From IMG/VR virus record IMGVR_UViG_3300025659_000005: a stretch of DNA of 20,000 nucleotides; one strand, given 5' to 3'. The DNA is from an uncultured virus (IMG/VR IMGVR_UViG_3300025659_000005) (Duplodnaviria > Heunggongvirae > Uroviricota > Caudoviricetes). The notes under the pieces were generated by a model. That model searched no databases. It was not told the origin of the DNA and saw only the letters and a program-made list of their open reading frames with translations. Shown here in pieces: positions 331 to 16,199 of the stretch; within the stretch, counting starts at the first letter, position 1; every line of letters begins with the position of its first letter. The position numbers were made by a program, and so were the translations under genes.

Positions 331-352
331 AAAAACAGAGAAAATATAAATT

Positions 353-376
353 ACCCGACTGCCGAAGCAGCCGGGT
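353..376 (-). terminator. Intrinsic terminator-like hairpin with C(UUCG)G tetraloop
   Basis: Minus strand ACCCGGCUGC-UUCG-GCAGUCGGGU (10 bp, one G-U) followed by a U-rich tract, just after the stop at 389. Confidence 0.8.
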
Positions 377-388
377 CTTTGTGATGAT

Positions 389-601
389 TTATTCGTAATC
401 ATGAATATTTTTTCTTGAAAACACAAAATCTTCAAAAGCACCATTTGGACTTTCTGGACTATCTGGATTGTCTTCACTTGGATCTTGATTTCTAGCAAAA
501 GATGCCATAAGATCCTTTTCAGGAGTTAGAGATAAATTAATTACAAAATCCCCAATTCTAATTTCGCTTTCTTCATTTTCTTCAATGTCTAATTCTTTCA
601 T
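389..601 (-). CDS. Small acidic hypothetical protein
   Basis: 70 aa; ATGA overlap with the radical SAM stop; GGAGG SD upstream. Confidence 0.7.
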   Translation of the reverse strand: MKELDIEENEESEIRIGDFVINLSLTPEKDLMASFARNQDPSEDNPDSPESPNGAFEDFVFSRKNIHDYE

Positions 602-1341
602 TGGGCCTCCTCTAATGATTTATGAATCATATACTTTTTACCATAATGATTCAATTTTTTCTCAACCTTCTCTTTGACTTCTTTCCAGTTTATTGTTTTT
701 TGGTGTTTGTTATAATTCAATTTACCAACACCATAAAAATCTGTGAATTCATGAGTATTATCGATAACATCTAATGCTTCTTGAAGATCAATAATTGGCT
801 CTAAACTTAACCAAGTTTTAATGTTTCTTTTTTTGGCTCTTCTTAGATTTTCAATCCTTTGTTTGGGGGAAGCTGCAAATGGTTCCCATTCTTTTTGTAA
901 ATCTTCATTTAACATAACTAAAGTAATACCGAATTCGTTTTCTTGAACTTGAGACAAAAGATCAAAATCTCTTTGAGCTAAATCTTCTCCTTTTGTAAGT
1001 ATTCGAACAGGAAAATCAAACGAATTTAATAATTTAATTGATGTTCGTGTTAGTTTTAGTTCTTCCTCTAGTGGTTGATAAGGATCACTAGTGAATGACA
1101 TAAGAACTTGAGATTTTTCGAATTCATCATTCTTTTCAATCAATTCTAAGTCTCTTATTAATCTCGTAATAATATCCTTTTTTGGTTTAATTGTTCCGTT
1201 AAAATTTTCTCTAGTGATTTTACAAACACCAGGGACAAAGCAGTACTTACAACCATGATTACAACCTATATAAAGATTGAGCGCAAGATCTGCATATTCT
1301 TTAGCAGAACCTTTTGGTTCATATATCACTCTATTTGGCAT
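598..1341 (-). CDS. Radical SAM protein, spore-photoproduct-lyase-like family
   Basis: CxxxCxxC motif (LNLYIGCNHGCKYCF) plus SDPYQPLE, ILTK and WLSLEP motifs typical of SPL-like radical SAM proteins. Confidence 0.85.
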   Translation of the reverse strand: MPNRVIYEPKGSAKEYADLALNLYIGCNHGCKYCFVPGVCKITRENFNGTIKPKKDIITRLIRDLELIEKNDEFEKSQVLMSFTSDPYQPLEEELKLTRTSIKLLNSFDFPVRILTKGEDLAQRDFDLLSQVQENEFGITLVMLNEDLQKEWEPFAASPKQRIENLRRAKKRNIKTWLSLEPIIDLQEALDVIDNTHEFTDFYGVGKLNYNKHQKTINWKEVKEKVEKKLNHYGKKYMIHKSLEEAQ

Positions 1342-2053
1342 TTGATTTTTCCTTCCACAAGAGATTTCTCCCTTTAGTATAAGTTATATTTAATGGATCA
1401 TGTGGTTTCTTTATAAAGATAACTGTACCCATTTGAGTTTTACCATGTTTATAAGGATACCCTTGTGGGTATATAGACCAATGATCTGGTATCCAATATT
1501 CTTTTAATAATATGTCGAATATATCACTTATTTGAAACTCTGATTTTTCTGAAAAAATATATGGATTTTTTAATACAAAATTACTAATAAGTAGTAATTC
1601 GTTTTTAACTCCATTATCTATAGTTTTCATAATTTTCTTAAGATAATCAGATCCATATTTTGGTTGCATTACACCATCATAATTAATAATTGATGGGTTG
1701 AATTGTTTGCCTATTATTCTTTCGCAAATAGTTTCAAGGAAATCTCCATGAATCCATTTAATGTGTGGATAATATTTCGCATTAGTTTTAATCACTTTTT
1801 CTTCTCGATCAACTCCGTAGAATTGATCTGGGTGAATTAGGTTGGAATTAACCAAATGCCCTAATTCACCCACTATAGAAGAAGTTCGAGTATAATGCGC
1901 TCCACACATTGTCCAATACTCTGAGTTTTCAGGAATTGATAACCTTCTAAATACTTTACGATATATTTTAATTATCGTTTTATATCTAGCTTCCACTTTT
2001 ATATCATCATCCCAAGGACTACTATGTACATAATTAGGTTGTGTATTGCGCAT
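1331..2053 (-). CDS. Putative class I SAM-dependent methyltransferase-like protein
   Basis: Rossmann-like motif order YWTMCG ... FYGVDRE ... WIHGDF ... IINYD; overlaps the radical SAM start by 11 nt. Confidence 0.55.
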   Translation of the reverse strand: MRNTQPNYVHSSPWDDDIKVEARYKTIIKIYRKVFRRLSIPENSEYWTMCGAHYTRTSSIVGELGHLVNSNLIHPDQFYGVDREEKVIKTNAKYYPHIKWIHGDFLETICERIIGKQFNPSIINYDGVMQPKYGSDYLKKIMKTIDNGVKNELLLISNFVLKNPYIFSEKSEFQISDIFDILLKEYWIPDHWSIYPQGYPYKHGKTQMGTVIFIKKPHDPLNITYTKGRNLLWKEKSNAK

Positions 2054-2074
2054 TATTTAAACCCTCAATTAATA

Positions 2075-5000
2075 TTATCTAAGGATATGTTGAAATAATT
2101 CTTTCTTTTTGTATATTCGATTGACTAATCCATAATATCCATTCTTTTTTAACCATGTAGCTGGTGGTAATTTTCCACCATTGTCTTTAGCAAGAATCTC
2201 TGCTATTTCTAACCAATCCTCAAAAGATTTACTAGGATTAACCATAAAATCTCTATCAATATGTGAAAATGATTTTTTGTTTAAAGAAAGATAAACTACT
2301 AATCTTTTGTGTCCATTCTCTCTTAACCATTTAGCTGGTGGTAATTTTCCACCATTGTCTTTAGCTAACTTCTCGGCTATTTCGATCCATTCATCTGAAG
2401 GTTTGTGACAATAATCTCTTTTAATATGTTTGAATGATTTTTTATTTGCGTATATAATACGAATTAATGTATTATAACCATTTGTTTTTAACCATTTAGC
2501 TGGTGGCAATTTTCCACCATTGTCTTTAGCTAACTTCTCGGCTATTTCGATCCATTCATCCAGAGATTTAAGATTATTATCATTTCTTTTAATATGAGAA
2601 AATGTATCTCTATTTGATATTATACATTGATATAACTTACGATAACCATTTGTTTTCAACCAACTAAGTGATGGTAATTTTCCACCATTGTCTTTAGCTA
2701 ACTTCTCGGCTATTTCGATCCATTCATCCAGAGATTTACACGGATCATTAATAAAATCTCTATCAATATGTGAAAATGATTTTTTGTTTATACAAAGATG
2801 GTTTACTAATCTTCCGTACCCATTCTTTCTTAACCATTTAACTGGTGGTAATTTTCCACCATTGTCTTTAGCTAACTTCTCGGCTATTTCGATCCATTCA
2901 TCCAGAGATTTACACGGATCATTAATAAAATCTCTATCAATATGTGAAAATGATTTTTTGTTTAAATGGTAAAGTAAATTTGAATACCCATTTTCTATCA
3001 ACCATGTAGCTGGTGGCAATTTTCCACCATTGTCTTTAACTAGATTCTCGGCTATTTTAAGCCATTTTTCTGGAGGCATAGAATCATATTTTCTTTTAAT
3101 ATGATCAAACATTTTCTTATGTTTACTATACAAGAGAGCAGTTAACCCCATATAACCATTTCTTTTTAACCAAATATATGATTGTAATTTTCCACCATTA
3201 TCTTTAGCTAACTTCTCTGCAATTTTAACCCAATCCTCTGGTGAATTTCTTTCTTTATATAAATTTTCTTTAAGAATATGTTTAAATGAATTTTTATATT
3301 TATACAAACAAATTTCTAATCCATTATACCCATTCTCTCTTAACCATTTAGATGGTGGTAATTTTCCACCATTTTCTTCAGTTAATTTCTCAGCTATTTG
3401 TACCCATTCTTCTATAGATTTTCTTTCTCCCTTAATAACATCTCTAAATTCTTGAAATGTTTTTGATGTACATGTATTAGTTCCAAAAATTCTTAAATCT
3501 TCAAAGATGTCATTCAACCAAATTTTATCAAAATCTTCGATAAAATAATTTGAATTATTTTTAGAATAATCAATTGATTTAATAATATGTTTTTGATTGT
3601 GCATTTTTCTAAAAACTAAACCGATGTGATTAATGATTTGGTCTTGATTTTTAATTATGTTCTCTGATGTTAATAAACATTTGATCCATTGTTTAACATC
3701 TTGAGCAGATGGATCTTCTGAAACAGATTTCATAACTATTAGTTTTTTAATTATGTTCTCCAATAATTTTGCTCTTTCATCATCATCTGGAAATATTTCC
3801 TCTAGAGGATTAATATATAACTCTCTTCTATTATTTGATTTTAATTTTGTTGGGTATTTAATTGGTTCAATAATGTCTTGTAACAATAAAGATGTTGCTA
3901 GAGCATTGAAACTTTTACTTAAATGTATTCGCCTTTCTTCTTCGTTTTTAAATTTACTTTCAAAAGGAAGAAAACAGTAATATATTATTGATTTCTTATT
4001 AAAGAAATCTCTCCACAATCTACCGAAACGTTGATGTGTTATTCTTAAAGTATTTGAAGGTGCTAAATCAAGACATTGTTCTGCATGAACCCAATCTGAT
4101 CCTTCATCAAATATTTTAAGAGTTAGTATCACATCAACATGTTTAGCATCTCTATTATCAAGGAGTATTTCTTTTCTCTTATCTCTACCGTTGGTTTCAA
4201 TAAGATCAAGAATTTTACAATCATGCCACTCTTCTTTGATAGTTTTAATAAGTTTATCTTTAAATTTATTCTTATTACTATCATTCATAAGATGACCAAC
4301 ATAAGGACAGAAAATTATGCTCTTTTTGTGTCCTAATTTAAATACTTTCTTAACTTCATCAAATATTTCATATTGTTTGTATATAACAAAATTAAAAGTA
4401 AAATCTTCAATATACTTAATATTTTCTTCCCAATGTTTATCTAGAGGAAGAAAATGCTTATCAAATGTATCTAGAATTTCTTTAGGTATAATAGAATTAC
4501 TATCACCACGATATGGTGTAGCTGTTACTAACCAAAGAGAACTATCAGATTTATTTTTAAAAATATGATTGACCATACTTCCAATTCTATTTGATGTTTC
4601 ATTATCCTCATACATTATATGATGAGCTTCATCAATTACGATTGTAGTATTATCAAATATATCATTAAATTTTGATACTTTTGAATATGTTTGAGCTAAA
4701 GTAGAATGTGTAACAATAGCCACACGATTTTCAATACCAGGTTCAAATTCTTTCTTTTTAAGAAATTTAGTTAAGTATTTGATTTTTTGAAGGTTAGATT
4801 TCTTGCAAAGATCATGAAAACAATCCCAATTAATTTGTGTACCATCATCATATTGAAGAATCATTTTTCCAAAAGATTTTGCAATAAATGTTTGAGGTAC
4901 AGCTATAACAACTTTCATGTTTGGATTATTTTTCAATCTATCAGCCATAACAAAAGCAACATTAATAGATTTACCTGATCCAGGTGGTTGTATCAGTTGA

Positions 5001-5146
5001 AAATATTTTGAATTTCGATTTTCTTCAAAAACTTCTCTTTGTTGGTTCCTCTGTGTGATTATTTCAAAATCTTCATTTTGATCTATTTTTATATCTACAG
5101 GTTTAATTTTATCAATGTGTCTTCCGAAAGCTCTAAAAATAGTCAT
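2075..5146 (-). CDS. Superfamily 2 (DExH, restriction-Res-like) helicase with C-terminal array of 8 tandem ~57-aa repeats
   Basis: Walker A PPGSGKS, IVIDEAHH, motif III TATPYRGD, motif V FDEGSD, motif VI QRFGRLWR; SD AAGGAG; repeats with WxxIAExLxxxNGGKL. Confidence 0.9.
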   Translation of the reverse strand: MTIFRAFGRHIDKIKPVDIKIDQNEDFEIITQRNQQREVFEENRNSKYFQLIQPPGSGKSINVAFVMADRLKNNPNMKVVIAVPQTFIAKSFGKMILQYDDGTQINWDCFHDLCKKSNLQKIKYLTKFLKKKEFEPGIENRVAIVTHSTLAQTYSKVSKFNDIFDNTTIVIDEAHHIMYEDNETSNRIGSMVNHIFKNKSDSSLWLVTATPYRGDSNSIIPKEILDTFDKHFLPLDKHWEENIKYIEDFTFNFVIYKQYEIFDEVKKVFKLGHKKSIIFCPYVGHLMNDSNKNKFKDKLIKTIKEEWHDCKILDLIETNGRDKRKEILLDNRDAKHVDVILTLKIFDEGSDWVHAEQCLDLAPSNTLRITHQRFGRLWRDFFNKKSIIYYCFLPFESKFKNEEERRIHLSKSFNALATSLLLQDIIEPIKYPTKLKSNNRRELYINPLEEIFPDDDERAKLLENIIKKLIVMKSVSEDPSAQDVKQWIKCLLTSENIIKNQDQIINHIGLVFRKMHNQKHIIKSIDYSKNNSNYFIEDFDKIWLNDIFEDLRIFGTNTCTSKTFQEFRDVIKGERKSIEEWVQIAEKLTEENGGKLPPSKWLRENGYNGLEICLYKYKNSFKHILKENLYKERNSPEDWVKIAEKLAKDNGGKLQSYIWLKRNGYMGLTALLYSKHKKMFDHIKRKYDSMPPEKWLKIAENLVKDNGGKLPPATWLIENGYSNLLYHLNKKSFSHIDRDFINDPCKSLDEWIEIAEKLAKDNGGKLPPVKWLRKNGYGRLVNHLCINKKSFSHIDRDFINDPCKSLDEWIEIAEKLAKDNGGKLPSLSWLKTNGYRKLYQCIISNRDTFSHIKRNDNNLKSLDEWIEIAEKLAKDNGGKLPPAKWLKTNGYNTLIRIIYANKKSFKHIKRDYCHKPSDEWIEIAEKLAKDNGGKLPPAKWLRENGHKRLVVYLSLNKKSFSHIDRDFMVNPSKSFEDWLEIAEILAKDNGGKLPPATWLKKNGYYGLVNRIYKKKELFQHILR
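2078..3421 (-). repeat. Coding tandem repeat array, 8 units of about 165-175 bp
   Basis: NGGKL motif occurs 8 times; 2672-2790 and 2846-2964 are identical over 119 bp (174-bp period). Confidence 0.95.
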
Positions 5147-5208: not shown

Positions 5209-5229
5209 TAAAACAAAGAAAATATAAAT

Positions 5230-5259
5230 TATCCCTAGCTACCGAAGTAGCTAAGGATA
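5230..5259 (-). terminator. Intrinsic terminator-like hairpin with C(UUCG)G tetraloop
   Basis: Minus strand UAUCCUUAGCUAC-UUCG-GUAGCUAGGGAUA (13 bp, one U-G) followed by a U-rich tract. Confidence 0.8.
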
Positions 5260-5487: not shown

Positions 5488-5868
5488 TTACTCATATAAA
5501 TGTGATGATTTATGTCTGCTACTATCAACACTATCAAAATCATAAAATGCGTTTGATACTGATGCAAAACAAGTAGGACATCGAAATCTAAAAGGTTCTC
5601 TTAATTTTTTATTACATTTAACACAACGTCTACCATTAAATTTACCAAGAATTTCTTTTGGTGATTTACGTAAAACATCTTTAAATGGTATTTTTCTTTG
5701 GTAGTTTCTAGATCTTTCTAAAATTTTTAATCGTTTTTTCTCTTGACATTCTTCTTTTTCACATGCTGTTCGTCGCCACCAATTAGTTAGATTTCTTGGA
5801 ATTTTGTCATTACAAAATTCACAAAAATTATCTGGTTGATTGTTTGCTTTATTCTTAGATTTTGACAA
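5488..5868 (-). CDS. Cys-rich putative zinc-finger protein
   Basis: CEFC, CEKEEC, CVKC and CPTC motifs; TTG start with AGGAG SD. Confidence 0.7.
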   Translation of the reverse strand: MSKSKNKANNQPDNFCEFCNDKIPRNLTNWWRRTACEKEECQEKKRLKILERSRNYQRKIPFKDVLRKSPKEILGKFNGRRCVKCNKKLREPFRFRCPTCFASVSNAFYDFDSVDSSRHKSSHLYE

Positions 5869-5877
5869 TTATTTCTC

Positions 5878-6598
5878 CTATTCATCATTTTCATTTATTC
5901 TAGTAATAAATTCAGTTACTGCTTGAATGATTGCAGACTTTTCAAAATATGTTGTTGTACAAAGAAATCTTTCAATTTCTTCTTCTGGAATTATATAATC
6001 ATTTTCTTTTACTTCATCACAAACCTCTAACAATTTTTCATCTTGAATTTTTTCATTAAGTTTATTTATTTGAGCATCGACCTTACTTGCTTTTTCATAA
6101 AAGTCAGATCTTTTCTTCTTGAGTTTGATCATCTCATCGGTATCTTCAACTTTTTCTTTTGCTAGTTTATATAAAATATCTTTAGAATGACTGTAATCTG
6201 ATTGGTGTTTTTCATTTTTAACTTTATCATATTGGTTTTTGAATACTTCATATGTTTTATTTAATAGTTCTTTTGCTTCATCAGGACTATTAACCATTGA
6301 GTTTCCAGGCTCAAGAATAATAGATTTTCTACAAACAAGTATAGGAATGATTTTTTTAGACTTTTTATCAATTCTTGTTGATAGTTTAGCGTCAGCTGTT
6401 GCACCACAATTATTATGTTTATCCGATATTATAAAATTATGGTTATAATATTTAATAAATATATCATATATACCTTTTGGAATATCGAAAACATATTCTT
6501 TTATATAATTTTCTTTTTGGTATTTATTATTTTTTTACCTTTGAAAGAATAGTTACTTAAAAATAATCAATATCTTTCTGTGTGTAAAATGACTTCAT
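5878..6598 (-). pseudogene. Hypothetical coiled-coil protein with apparent 5' frameshifts (pseudogene or sequencing error)
   Basis: The 5878-6297 frame stays open up to 6534; an SD-preceded ATG at 6598 joins it only if one base is added in each of two homopolymer runs. Confidence 0.5.
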
Positions 6599-11084: not shown

Positions 11085-11621
11085 CTAACAACTACTATCA
11101 TCAATTTCAAATCTTTCACCACAAATTGGACAACGAATATCTAAATGCCACCAAGTATCATTATAACACTCCATTCCAGATCCATATCCTCCAGTACTGG
11201 CATAACAATAGGGATCTGTAATTATTTCATATGTTAGACAAGAACATTTTATCTCTTTTATATTTCTAAATTGAAAATTCCTTCTAATGAATTCATCCCA
11301 CACATTTTCAGCATGTGAGTATCCAAGAGAATAACATATATCTTCAGCATCAATACTATTCTCCATATAGTGACATCCTGGTTGATGTGCTTGAATATCT
11401 TGTTTCGGTACAGATTCATAATATGGTAAATAATTCCATCCACATTTAGGGCAATTAGTATCATTATTAAAATCTATCTGACTGTCACAAATTTTGCAAT
11501 AATAATAATCTTCTTGCCAGGAATATTCAGGAGATTTTTCTTGATCATGTGGAGTAAGAGCTTGACATTCGTCGCACCAGAAATATCCTTTAGGTATATT
11601 TATATATCCATCGCTAGACAT
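11085..11621 (-). CDS. Multi-CxxC zinc-ribbon protein
   Basis: CDEC, CKIC, CPKC, CSC and CPIC motifs; overlaps the ATPase stop. Confidence 0.7.
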   Translation of the reverse strand: MSSDGYINIPKGYFWCDECQALTPHDQEKSPEYSWQEDYYYCKICDSQIDFNNDTNCPKCGWNYLPYYESVPKQDIQAHQPGCHYMENSIDAEDICYSLGYSHAENVWDEFIRRNFQFRNIKEIKCSCLTYEIITDPYCYASTGGYGSGMECYNDTWWHLDIRCPICGERFEIDDSSC

Positions 11622-12189
11622 TATTCATTCCTCTTATACCAGAATAAATTTGTTTTGTAAATTCAACAACATCATTATAATATCCATCAGTTAATTCAAT
11701 TACGTTGAACATAGGATTTAATATTATAAATGGATGGTGTGTAATTATTGATATTTGTGATGCTTTTGATTTTTTCAAAGTAGATATTAATAATTTCAAT
11801 CCATTTATATCTAGAGCTTGTTCTGGTTCATCTAAGAAGAACATACTATCTTTAGCGTCATCTTGTGTCATACATTTGATAATAGCTTGATTTGATTGAC
11901 CGTGAGAAATAAACAAAGATGAAATTTGAGTCTTATTTGATATATAACCTTTTTTTCTTGGATTATCTTTTTCGAAATCAAATATATAATAATTACCATG
12001 AATTGAATCTACCTTACAAGTTTTTTTAATTTCTTTTGAAGGTGTTGTTAATAGATGAAATAATGATGATTTACCGCTACCATTTTCACCAATGATTACA
12101 TTAGGACCTGGTTTAAAAAATATTTCTTTCTTATTGATTCTATTTTTCATATCACCAGATACTTTAACACTGATCACTTGAGGTTTCAT
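11614..12189 (-). CDS. Stand-alone ABC-type ATPase
   Basis: Walker A GENGSGKS, signature-like SHGQ, Walker B FFLDEPE, H-loop IITHHP; no transmembrane partner adjacent. Confidence 0.85.
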   Translation of the reverse strand: MKPQVISVKVSGDMKNRINKKEIFFKPGPNVIIGENGSGKSSLFHLLTTPSKEIKKTCKVDSIHGNYYIFDFEKDNPRKKGYISNKTQISSLFISHGQSNQAIIKCMTQDDAKDSMFFLDEPEQALDINGLKLLISTLKKSKASQISIITHHPFIILNPMFNVIELTDGYYNDVVEFTKQIYSGIRGMNNV

Positions 12190-15077: not shown

Positions 15078-15512
15078 CTAGTTTTTAATGTATGTATAAG
15101 ACCCACTATTATTTTCAGTCTCAAACATCTTTATACGAATTTTATAAAAATTATCAAATTTTATATCTTTAAAAAATTCTAATAATAGATCTAGAAAGTG
15201 TTTACACATGTTCTCGACAGTTGTGTTAGTATATTCTTTTGGCATAATATATACTTTAGAACAATTAACATCAATAACAGTATCTCTAGTAATGATTACA
15301 GAGTGATCAATAAATGAATCAATTAATTCTTTTTGAAATGTTTTTAATTCTCCAAAATCAATTATGAAACCATTTCGATCTAATTCTTCACTAGAAATTT
15401 TAACATATAATTTATATGAATGACCATGTATAGTTGAGCATGGATGGTTTTCTCCTAATCCTTTTAATACATGTGCTGCTTCAAATGTAAATTTCTTTTC
15501 AATTTCGTACAA
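15078..15512 (-). CDS. queD: 6-carboxy-5,6,7,8-tetrahydropterin synthase
   Basis: FEAAHxL, CxxIHGHSY, IDFG, DH, TxEN and ET motifs; adjacent to queC; TTG start. Confidence 0.92.
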   Translation of the reverse strand: MYEIEKKFTFEAAHVLKGLGENHPCSTIHGHSYKLYVKISSEELDRNGFIIDFGELKTFQKELIDSFIDHSVIITRDTVIDVNCSKVYIMPKEYTNTTVENMCKHFLDLLLEFFKDIKFDNFYKIRIKMFETENNSGSYTYIKN

Positions 15513-15527
15513 TTTATACTCCTGTTT

Positions 15528-16199
15528 TTATTCATATTCAATTGGATCTTTAACATTATTTAATTTAAATGCTTCAAGACGCTCAACACATGATCCACAA
15601 ACACCACAAGATCTTTCTTGATCTTTGTAACATGTACGTGTAAGATGATATGGAACTTCCAAATCAAGACCTTCTTGAACAATCTCAATTTTATCCATAT
15701 CAATTAATGGTGTGTAAACTTCAACACTTTTATCAGTTGACAAGTAGATACAAGAATCTAGTGCTTTTACAAATTCCTTACGACAATCTGGATAGATCTC
15801 ATGATCTCCCTTATGAACACCTAATGCAATTCTATTAAATCCAATACTTTCAGCATAACCGGCTAAAATACTAGCAAACATTAAATTTCTACCAGGTACT
15901 ACTGTTTGTGACATTGTTGCATCATTATAATGTCCTTCAGGTATTTCACCACCAGACAATAGTAAATTAGATTTAAGTAATTTTCCAACATTTCTTAAAT
16001 CTATTAAACTGTATTCTACATCATAATGTTTAGCAATTTTTTTTGCACTTTCAATTTCATATTTATTATGTTTAGATCCATATTCAAATCCGACACATCT
16101 AATACTGTCTGATTGATGAAATGATTGATCGAATAAAATGGCTAAAAGTGTAGTACTATCTAATCCTCCCGATAAAGCTACTACAAAACTATCTGACAT
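15528..16199 (-). CDS. queC: 7-cyano-7-deazaguanine (preQ0) synthase
   Basis: SGGLDS PP-loop, VPGRN, YPDCR and TRTCY...CGVCGSC Zn site. Confidence 0.95.
   Translation of the reverse strand: MSDSFVVALSGGLDSTTLLAILFDQSFHQSDSIRCVGFEYGSKHNKYEIESAKKIAKHYDVEYSLIDLRNVGKLLKSNLLLSGGEIPEGHYNDATMSQTVVPGRNLMFASILAGYAESIGFNRIALGVHKGDHEIYPDCRKEFVKALDSCIYLSTDKSVEVYTPLIDMDKIEIVQEGLDLEVPYHLTRTCYKDQERSCGVCGSCVERLEAFKLNNVKDPIEYE

Follow-up and report, generated by a model that had tools for sequence, protein, structure and literature searches.

In TALE, PPR and zinc-finger arrays, specificity resides in a few variable residues per repeat, and the TALE/PPR fold is a two-helix solenoid. Among modification enzymes, motif IV of amino-methyltransferases reads (D/N/S)PP(Y/F), DUF5131 radical SAM proteins pair with a TcmP methyltransferase-like partner, and genes of the QueC/QueD type belong to phages that make 7-deazaguanine DNA modifications. 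A helicase followed by tandem helical repeats is a known architecture, that of HA (PF03457); the title of an NMR paper cited within PMC12191111 states that DNA binding by HA is indicated, and HA is listed among the domains fused to nucleases in the work on modification-dependent defence (PMC12191111). The Type ISP enzymes LlaBIII and LlaGI are reported to share more than 95% over three domains, the target-recognition domain excepted (PMC3553950; domain order from PMC4666363), and the arms of homing endonucleases are described as strings of small DNA-binding modules on weakly binding enzymes with extended sites (PMC3664794), with HNH_repeat and PF14882 tabulated among repeat families (PMC8078820). 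DUF5131, MJ0683-like proteins and spore photoproduct lyase are classed as subgroups of one megacluster (PMC9477430), and TcmP appears as a table entry in PMC12429752. Phages and mobile elements commonly encode helicases that bear strings of small helical repeats; a literature search confined mostly to freely accessible papers and to main texts found no description of what these helicases do, and none of the repeat family, the methyltransferase-fold/radical SAM partners or the bounded array exchange reported here.

The window analysed here, a 20,000-nucleotide stretch of DNA from an uncultured virus, was present in 20 of 20 marine runs among the matches listed (17 studies) and resembles a large phage in encoding topoisomerase II, primase, QueC and QueD. 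The QueD (PTPS) and QueC genes lie at 15078–16199 on the minus strand. The locus of interest is a four-gene unit bounded by two terminator-like hairpins (Table 1), of a pattern that matches twice in comparison with 0.01 expected, but was picked after both hairpins had been seen. Promoter-like sites were fewer than expected (31, compared with 45 by chance).

Table 1 Features of the helicase–array locus in the window
Feature	Coordinates	Strand	Basis or remark
SF2 helicase, 1023 aa, with C-terminal 8-unit repeat array	2075..5146	-	Pfam and profile matches
Linker domain, helical, at the motor–array junction, residues ~380–575	3422..4009	-	family-specific, conserved
Array, 8 units	2078..3427	-	repeat periods, predicted structure, column entropy
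Unit 1	3427-3254	-	
Unit 2	3253-3086	-	
Unit 3	3085-2918	-	
Unit 4	2917-2744	-	
Unit 5	2743-2576	-	
Unit 6	2575-2411	-	
Unit 7	2410-2237	-	
Unit 8	2236-2078	-	
Exact 119-nt repeat, 2672-2790 = 2846-2964	2672..2964	.	exact sequence match
Class I SAM-dependent methyltransferase-fold protein, 240 aa, no named family	1331..2053	-	conserved helicase partner
Radical SAM protein, 247 aa, CxxxCxYC, PA0069/spore-photoproduct-lyase-like	598..1341	-	Radical_SAM 1.5e-13; NF033668 4e-27, far below its cut-off
Acidic ORF, 70 aa, end of the terminator-bounded unit	389..601	-	elsewhere only in the near-identical locus L058 (loci compared)
Terminator-like hairpin, CTTCGG loop, ATTTATATT tail, upstream of helicase	5221..5259	-	~75 nt from helicase start
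Second terminator-like hairpin, at the end of the four-gene unit, loop (CTTCGG) and tail (ATTTATATT) as in the first	343..376	-	pattern match

The motor occupies residues ~25–380 of the helicase and is ResIII/XPB-like (Pfam: DEAD 4e-10, ResIII 3e-9, Helicase_C 3e-5). SF2 motifs I, II, III and VI are all intact, and none of the 37 aligned homologues departs from G58 K59, D172 E173 and Q372 R376 R379 (Walker A, Walker B and motif VI). By profile, the nearest solved structures are the XPB, SauUSI-type, UvsW and RadD motors (7clg is the structure titled SauUSI). The linker domain had no library match when searched by itself, and Pfam, PHROG, PADLOC and NCBIfam detected no endonuclease domain in the three larger cassette genes. 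LlaBIII and LlaGI match positions 335–553 of the helicase-family profile, a match that the linker profile alone does not reproduce; the linker is possibly a functional equivalent of the Type ISP coupler.

The genes downstream of the helicase include a conserved enzymatic partner that the preliminary description of this locus had overlooked, together with the radical SAM protein, in an interpretation that otherwise proved partly supported. The methyltransferase-fold gene overlaps the radical SAM gene by 11 nt. Its family lacks DPPY/NPPY and displays NYDG..QP after strand 4; the partner found no match among 50,697 GenBank phages, and none of six partner proteins matched any NCBIfam model at E ≤ 0.01. 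Across the cassette family the helicase–array gene is the constant member and the radical SAM gene the variable one, its slot being filled by a DUF5131-like enzyme in L001 and L063/L087. In L059 (7977–11821) and L060 (295–3991), unlike in the window, the radical SAM gene follows the helicase gene and precedes the methyltransferase-fold gene. The 70-aa acidic ORF is a possible DNA mimic or regulator.

The array consists, as had been claimed, of eight tandem units on one consensus; the hexamers that follow NG(Y/H) agree with the earlier list letter for letter (eight of eight distinct, Leu invariant), and variation extends to the three residues preceding the second Trp (six distinct triplets among the eight units). 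Each unit is laid out as helix 1, a GGKLP turn, helix 2, NGY, the variable helix 3 and a short helix, and the predicted structure is a small helical domain (pLDDT 89), as anticipated. The periods from NGGKL to NGGKL along the array are 58, 56, 56, 58, 56, 55 and 58 amino acids, and family-wide, where arrays hold 3–13 units, the spacing is near-constant (723 of 756 periods, or 96%, measure 52–59 amino acids). TRF scores of the array DNA reach 762–951, compared with ≤47 for the remaining 19 of 22 TRF rows in the window. The scaffold DNA of units 4–7 is 82–93% identical, compared with 39–76% for the variable segment, and beyond the 119-nt repeat these units share exact repeats of 63, 61, 57 and 53 nt.

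None of five rows of a sequence search of the array against the PDB fell below E 0.26, the PPR and ankyrin rows of a Foldseek search all had TM ≤0.2 (PPR rows <0.2), and no solved HA structure appeared among the 50 VIA matches listed, which excludes nothing. For PF26683 (Atlas name Tyr_recomb_halo_N), precomputed annotation that gives no scores lists the domain on 19 of 27 homologues. The Pfam hits to APP_Cu_bd, Knl-2, DUF2188 and ZipA_C were judged to be summed repeat noise because no single stretch passes alone, as was the PADLOC MTase_II match; Atlas feature matches (top score 0.83) are a lead only.

Per-position variability across homologues, a check that the preliminary description had proposed, places the entropy maxima at columns 36–38 and 41 (helix 2) and 46, 49, 50 and 53 (helix 3), around the buried L48 and column 52. 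If L48 is taken as position 4, as we assume, columns 46, 49, 50 and 53 become recognition-helix positions 2, 5, 6 and 9. The variable residues, ~9–11 per unit, map in the predicted structure to the surface of helix 3 and the start of helix 2, in agreement with the earlier placement; they are polar or basic, poor in acids and covary as one patch (column pairs 37–49, 49–53 and 41–49; n = 923 units). D/E make up 43% of the helix-1 surface versus 6.5% and 5.2% of the variable sites (n = 923 units). Hydrophobic residues account for 17–24% of variable sites versus 60% under neutral drift (n = 101 units with DNA), and the sites are therefore constrained to be polar. In L001 and L063, helix 3 is almost uniform along the whole array.

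These properties bear on whether each unit could read one short word by itself, in an additive code that can be re-shuffled and programmed in the manner of zinc fingers or TALEs. The fixed scaffold, the near-constant period and the variable recognition-helix face would suit such a code. A few-residue code of the TALE/PPR kind, which had been suggested earlier, finds no support, as a small recurrent residue set is lacking: columns 49/50, the likeliest two positions for such a code, carry 249 distinct pairs in 923 units, the top ten of which make up 19%, and there are 685 distinct triplets in 914 units. The spread of the variation over two helices, with coupling between them, also argues against additivity.

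The same data can be read in a second way, in which the array is a sequence-nonspecific DNA tether, i.e. an avidity or processivity arm, and its replacement results from recombination-prone repeats and not from retargeting. Units would then be gained and lost by unequal crossover, helix 1 would be homogenised by gene conversion, and the helix 2–3 surface would drift under a loose ‘polar, not acidic’ requirement. We compared 221 within-gene unit pairs from 20 genes (three duplicate loci dropped), with column classes defined after the entropy was seen. At variable sites pN is about equal to pS, which is ~0.5 and likewise raised in the helix 2–3 segment; selection for diversity is thus left without support, and a test of these pairs for positive selection (dN/dS >1) did not show it. 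This outcome favours a tether, as do the frequency of D/E at variable sites (3.6–8.9%, not below the neutral 3.4%; n = 101 units with DNA) and the 896 distinct six-residue combinations in 913 units, in which no successful word is reused. However, variability is half as high on the surface of helix 1, which is exposed to the same degree (pN 0.26 versus 0.55, with a range of 0.54–0.56 at variable sites; higher at the variable sites in 18 of 19 genes with at least three units), and a drifting surface is at odds with variable positions that covary as a patch.

Comparison of close relatives reveals that whole arrays are replaced while the motor and the methyltransferase-fold partner are kept. Between L072 and L074, identity is 95% for the motor, 98% for the methyltransferase-fold gene and 36% for the arrays, which have 4 and 5 units; in L079, L124 and L125 the motor and methyltransferase-fold gene are 86–91% identical and the arrays (4, 4 and 8 units) 24–33%. 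For four pairs in these two independent groups, blastn homology stops ≤ ~60 nt from the array start and returns at the gene end. In a fifth pair, L001/L063 (82%, 81% and, for the array, 41%), the alignment is continuous. Replacement bounded by the array edges between motors that are 86–95% identical counts against a tether, which we consider unlikely. The exchange, as seen in sequence comparison, suggests a retargetable arm that would recognise DNA and may do so by some form of reading code. Close relatives swap arrays whole and not permuted, a further point against an additive code.

The 90% cluster of the window protein has 9 members, and the 8-unit form occurs on 11 contigs, forms without unit 4, 5 or 6 on 3, 3 and 1, and a form with unit 4 doubled and unit 5 missing on 1, in addition to 4 fragments. 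Database alleles of this kind are what independent, re-shufflable units would give. All four deletion/duplication alleles, however, fit breaks inside the exact repeats of 119, 63 and 53 nt and leave the protein otherwise unchanged (L058 has a 174-nt loss at the 119-nt repeat, and the remainder of its helicase gene is identical), as assembly collapse would produce. Because recombination and assembly collapse predict the same outcome, these alleles were left out of the evidence. Considering these results together with the lack of a recurrent residue set, we regard the additive code as improbable; of the re-shuffling proposed earlier, the exchange of whole arrays among close relatives stands and the reshuffling of units within the population is left without support. 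The segment is hypervariable between units but not within the population: Logan contigs from 4 of the 20 runs (4 studies) have no alternative letters over 1900–3700, with the caveat that rare variants are lost from contigs. Logan cover is interrupted at unit 6 in X4 and X5 and at unit 4 in X2, which may be graph simplification and proves nothing. Outside the cassette, L058 lacks ~625 nt at a small ABC/SbcC-like ATPase gene (11614–12189) and has 61 mismatches at 5750–6359, a segment that includes 5878–6359, the rest being 99.9% identical to the window; these differences are gene-level polymorphism in the phage population.

On the scale of the motor family, the type of repeat differs as well. 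A quick 50-row tree of motors requires at least 5 changes of repeat type: an HA-bearing motor is nested among motors with the window-type repeat, and of the sister motors L110 and L111 the first bears HA and the second an unnamed LPGGS repeat. At least 4 repeat types without demonstrated homology to the window's unit are found on this motor family, and L073 (1891–6641) and L084 (3664–8790) have a motor with no array, followed by the methyltransferase-fold gene; both facts suit a tether. L084 then has separate INT_rpt array genes, and the targeting module may thus also work in trans. In the cultured jumbo phage Tunturi_5, gp100 encodes the motor alone, two array genes adjoin it and a third array gene lies elsewhere, an arrangement that the additive code would accommodate; the phage has no match to the methyltransferase-fold partner. 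The window-type unit also occurs with an Mrr_cat_2 nuclease and a different SF2 motor (P0011), on T5orf172 nucleases, in strings mixed with HNH_repeat or INT_rpt, and alongside HA modules.

Several side observations concern these arrays. The Tunturi_5 genes gp100, gp99, gp98 and gp48 lie at L126 6088–9871 and L138 8491–9369, and the main text of the Tunturi phage paper (PMC11924767) does not mention helicases. The two stand-alone array genes that follow the motor gene of this phage open with an apparent half HA domain, as do several database arrays (P0057: weak HA match), and this start is possibly a docking segment. Two unnamed repeats on the motor family, the LPGGS and planctomycete types (L111 7878–11333, L108 2401–3849, L093–L122), are mutually related (hhalign 90%, E 1e-6), and neither has a Pfam match. 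The closest motor, that of L059, carries a shortened variant of the repeat that is missing much of helix 2, and in P0042 five units (residues 861–1064) precede a long CxxC zinc-ribbon-like repeat string on the same motor.

The repeat anatomy, the intact motor motifs, the conserved partner and the wholesale array replacement are direct observations. Beyond them, we propose that large phages carry a small mobile cassette, made up of the motor with its array, the methyltransferase-fold protein and usually the radical SAM protein, in which the array acts as an exchangeable DNA-targeting module. We hold this reading, in which we infer binding, specificity and chemistry, to be the likeliest one, at about even odds. 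Each unit would be a helix-turn-helix-type bead with the starts of helices 2 and 3 facing DNA, and its ~9–11 variable residues would give a short, context-dependent sequence preference. With 3–13 beads at near-constant spacing, the array could recognise a single long site with some tolerance, in the way of homing-endonuclease arms, or else any of several short sites. Binding would load the ResIII/XPB-like motor for translocation or sliding, the methyltransferase-fold and radical SAM partners would carry out chemistry on the DNA at the site or close to it, and array replacement would retarget the cassette, as does the exchange of target-recognition domains in restriction-modification enzymes. 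Of these parts, the array probably binds DNA; that it binds with a sequence preference which swapping changes is marginally probable, and that the two partners modify DNA as one system is slightly less likely than not.

The variable face might instead have a target that is not a DNA sequence (modified bases, RNA, or a protein of the host or of a competitor) and diversify in an arms race. The cassette partners are SAM enzymes, the window encodes QueC and QueD, HA is fused to nucleases in the defence paper (PMC12191111), and aromatic residues make up 8–11% of helix-3 sites, all of which would fit such a target. The basic linkers, the acid-poor helix N-termini and the fusion to T5orf172/Mrr nucleases fit contact with the backbone of duplex DNA, and we judge a non-sequence target very improbable.

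Returning to the array as a DNA-targeting module, the family makes function testable: it comprises more than 900 naturally occurring units built on a single scaffold, pairs of relatives whose motors are near-identical but whose arrays differ (L072/L074; L079/L124/L125), a conserved enzymatic partner as a potential chemical read-out, and cultured Tunturi_5, with motor and arrays as separate genes. If arrays are sequence-specific, they would provide a repeat-based route for retargeting a DNA-modification-like system; if units are additive, a new programmable DNA-binding scaffold. The furthest-reaching form of the model, which we find quite doubtful, is a natural library of ~55-residue metal-free DNA-reading beads with a near-additive code, swapped on the motor/methyltransferase/radical-SAM cassette and aiming base chemistry at chosen long sites; if true, DNA modification would here be directed to its sites by a programme held in protein, and the engineering of DNA binders would gain a new scaffold.

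Among described systems, HA arrays share with the window a ResIII-like SF2 motor followed C-terminally by tandem small three-helix domains, and HA carriers occur in the same motor family (L086, L110, L112 and L113, with 4–6 HA domains; L086 also has the methyltransferase partner). Membership of HA, which had been raised earlier, did not hold: HA arrays on related motors score 105–235 bits, whereas neither the window protein nor the array alone matches PF03457 at E ≤ 0.1, and the unit, shorter than HA (55–56 aa) and with its own consensus, reaches a profile probability of 7.9% over 31 columns. TALE, PPR and C2H2 zinc-finger arrays likewise repeat with a regular period and vary surface residues at set positions of a constant scaffold, but the window units are predicted globular three-helix beads and not two-helix solenoids, lack zinc ligands, and have 9–11 variable positions with no recurrent di-residue set. 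DUF5131–TcmP pairs resemble the cassette in that a methyltransferase-fold gene adjoins a radical SAM gene, and differ in that here the helicase–array gene is constant and the radical SAM gene variable. Ophion (10.1101/2025.09.30.679545), as described there, has different partners and was set aside as a counterpart.

GIY-YIG/HNH homing endonucleases (NUMOD and HTH modules; HNH_repeat PF18780, INT_rpt PF14882) also carry strings of modules on an enzyme, which in the window is a motor. PF18780 has no Pfam match to the window array or to any of three viral records with arrays, and HNH_repeat aligned by hhalign with five units gave 1.6%, compared with 1.7% for a reversed control (shallow template). 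The Type ISP enzymes share an SF2 motor, a methyltransferase fold and an exchangeable specificity module, and P0011, with its window-type repeat, nuclease and motor, adds to the likeness; the helicase-family profile matches the Type ISP structures 4xqk (3e-7) and 5ffj (7e-7), although XPB scores above them. The motor motifs of Type ISP and Type III enzymes are present in the cassette, whereas no endonuclease domain was detected in its three larger genes and the (D/N/S)PP(Y/F) motif is missing. The cassette also differs in that a gene of its own, lacking DPPY/NPPY, encodes the methyltransferase fold, that repeats strung on the motor would form the specificity module, and that a radical SAM gene is present in addition. 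Because it has no nuclease and no amino-methyltransferase motif, we place the cassette outside the Type ISP and homing-endonuclease families. Even so, the pattern of LlaBIII and LlaGI, conserved domains with a different specificity module, is the pattern of L072 and L074.
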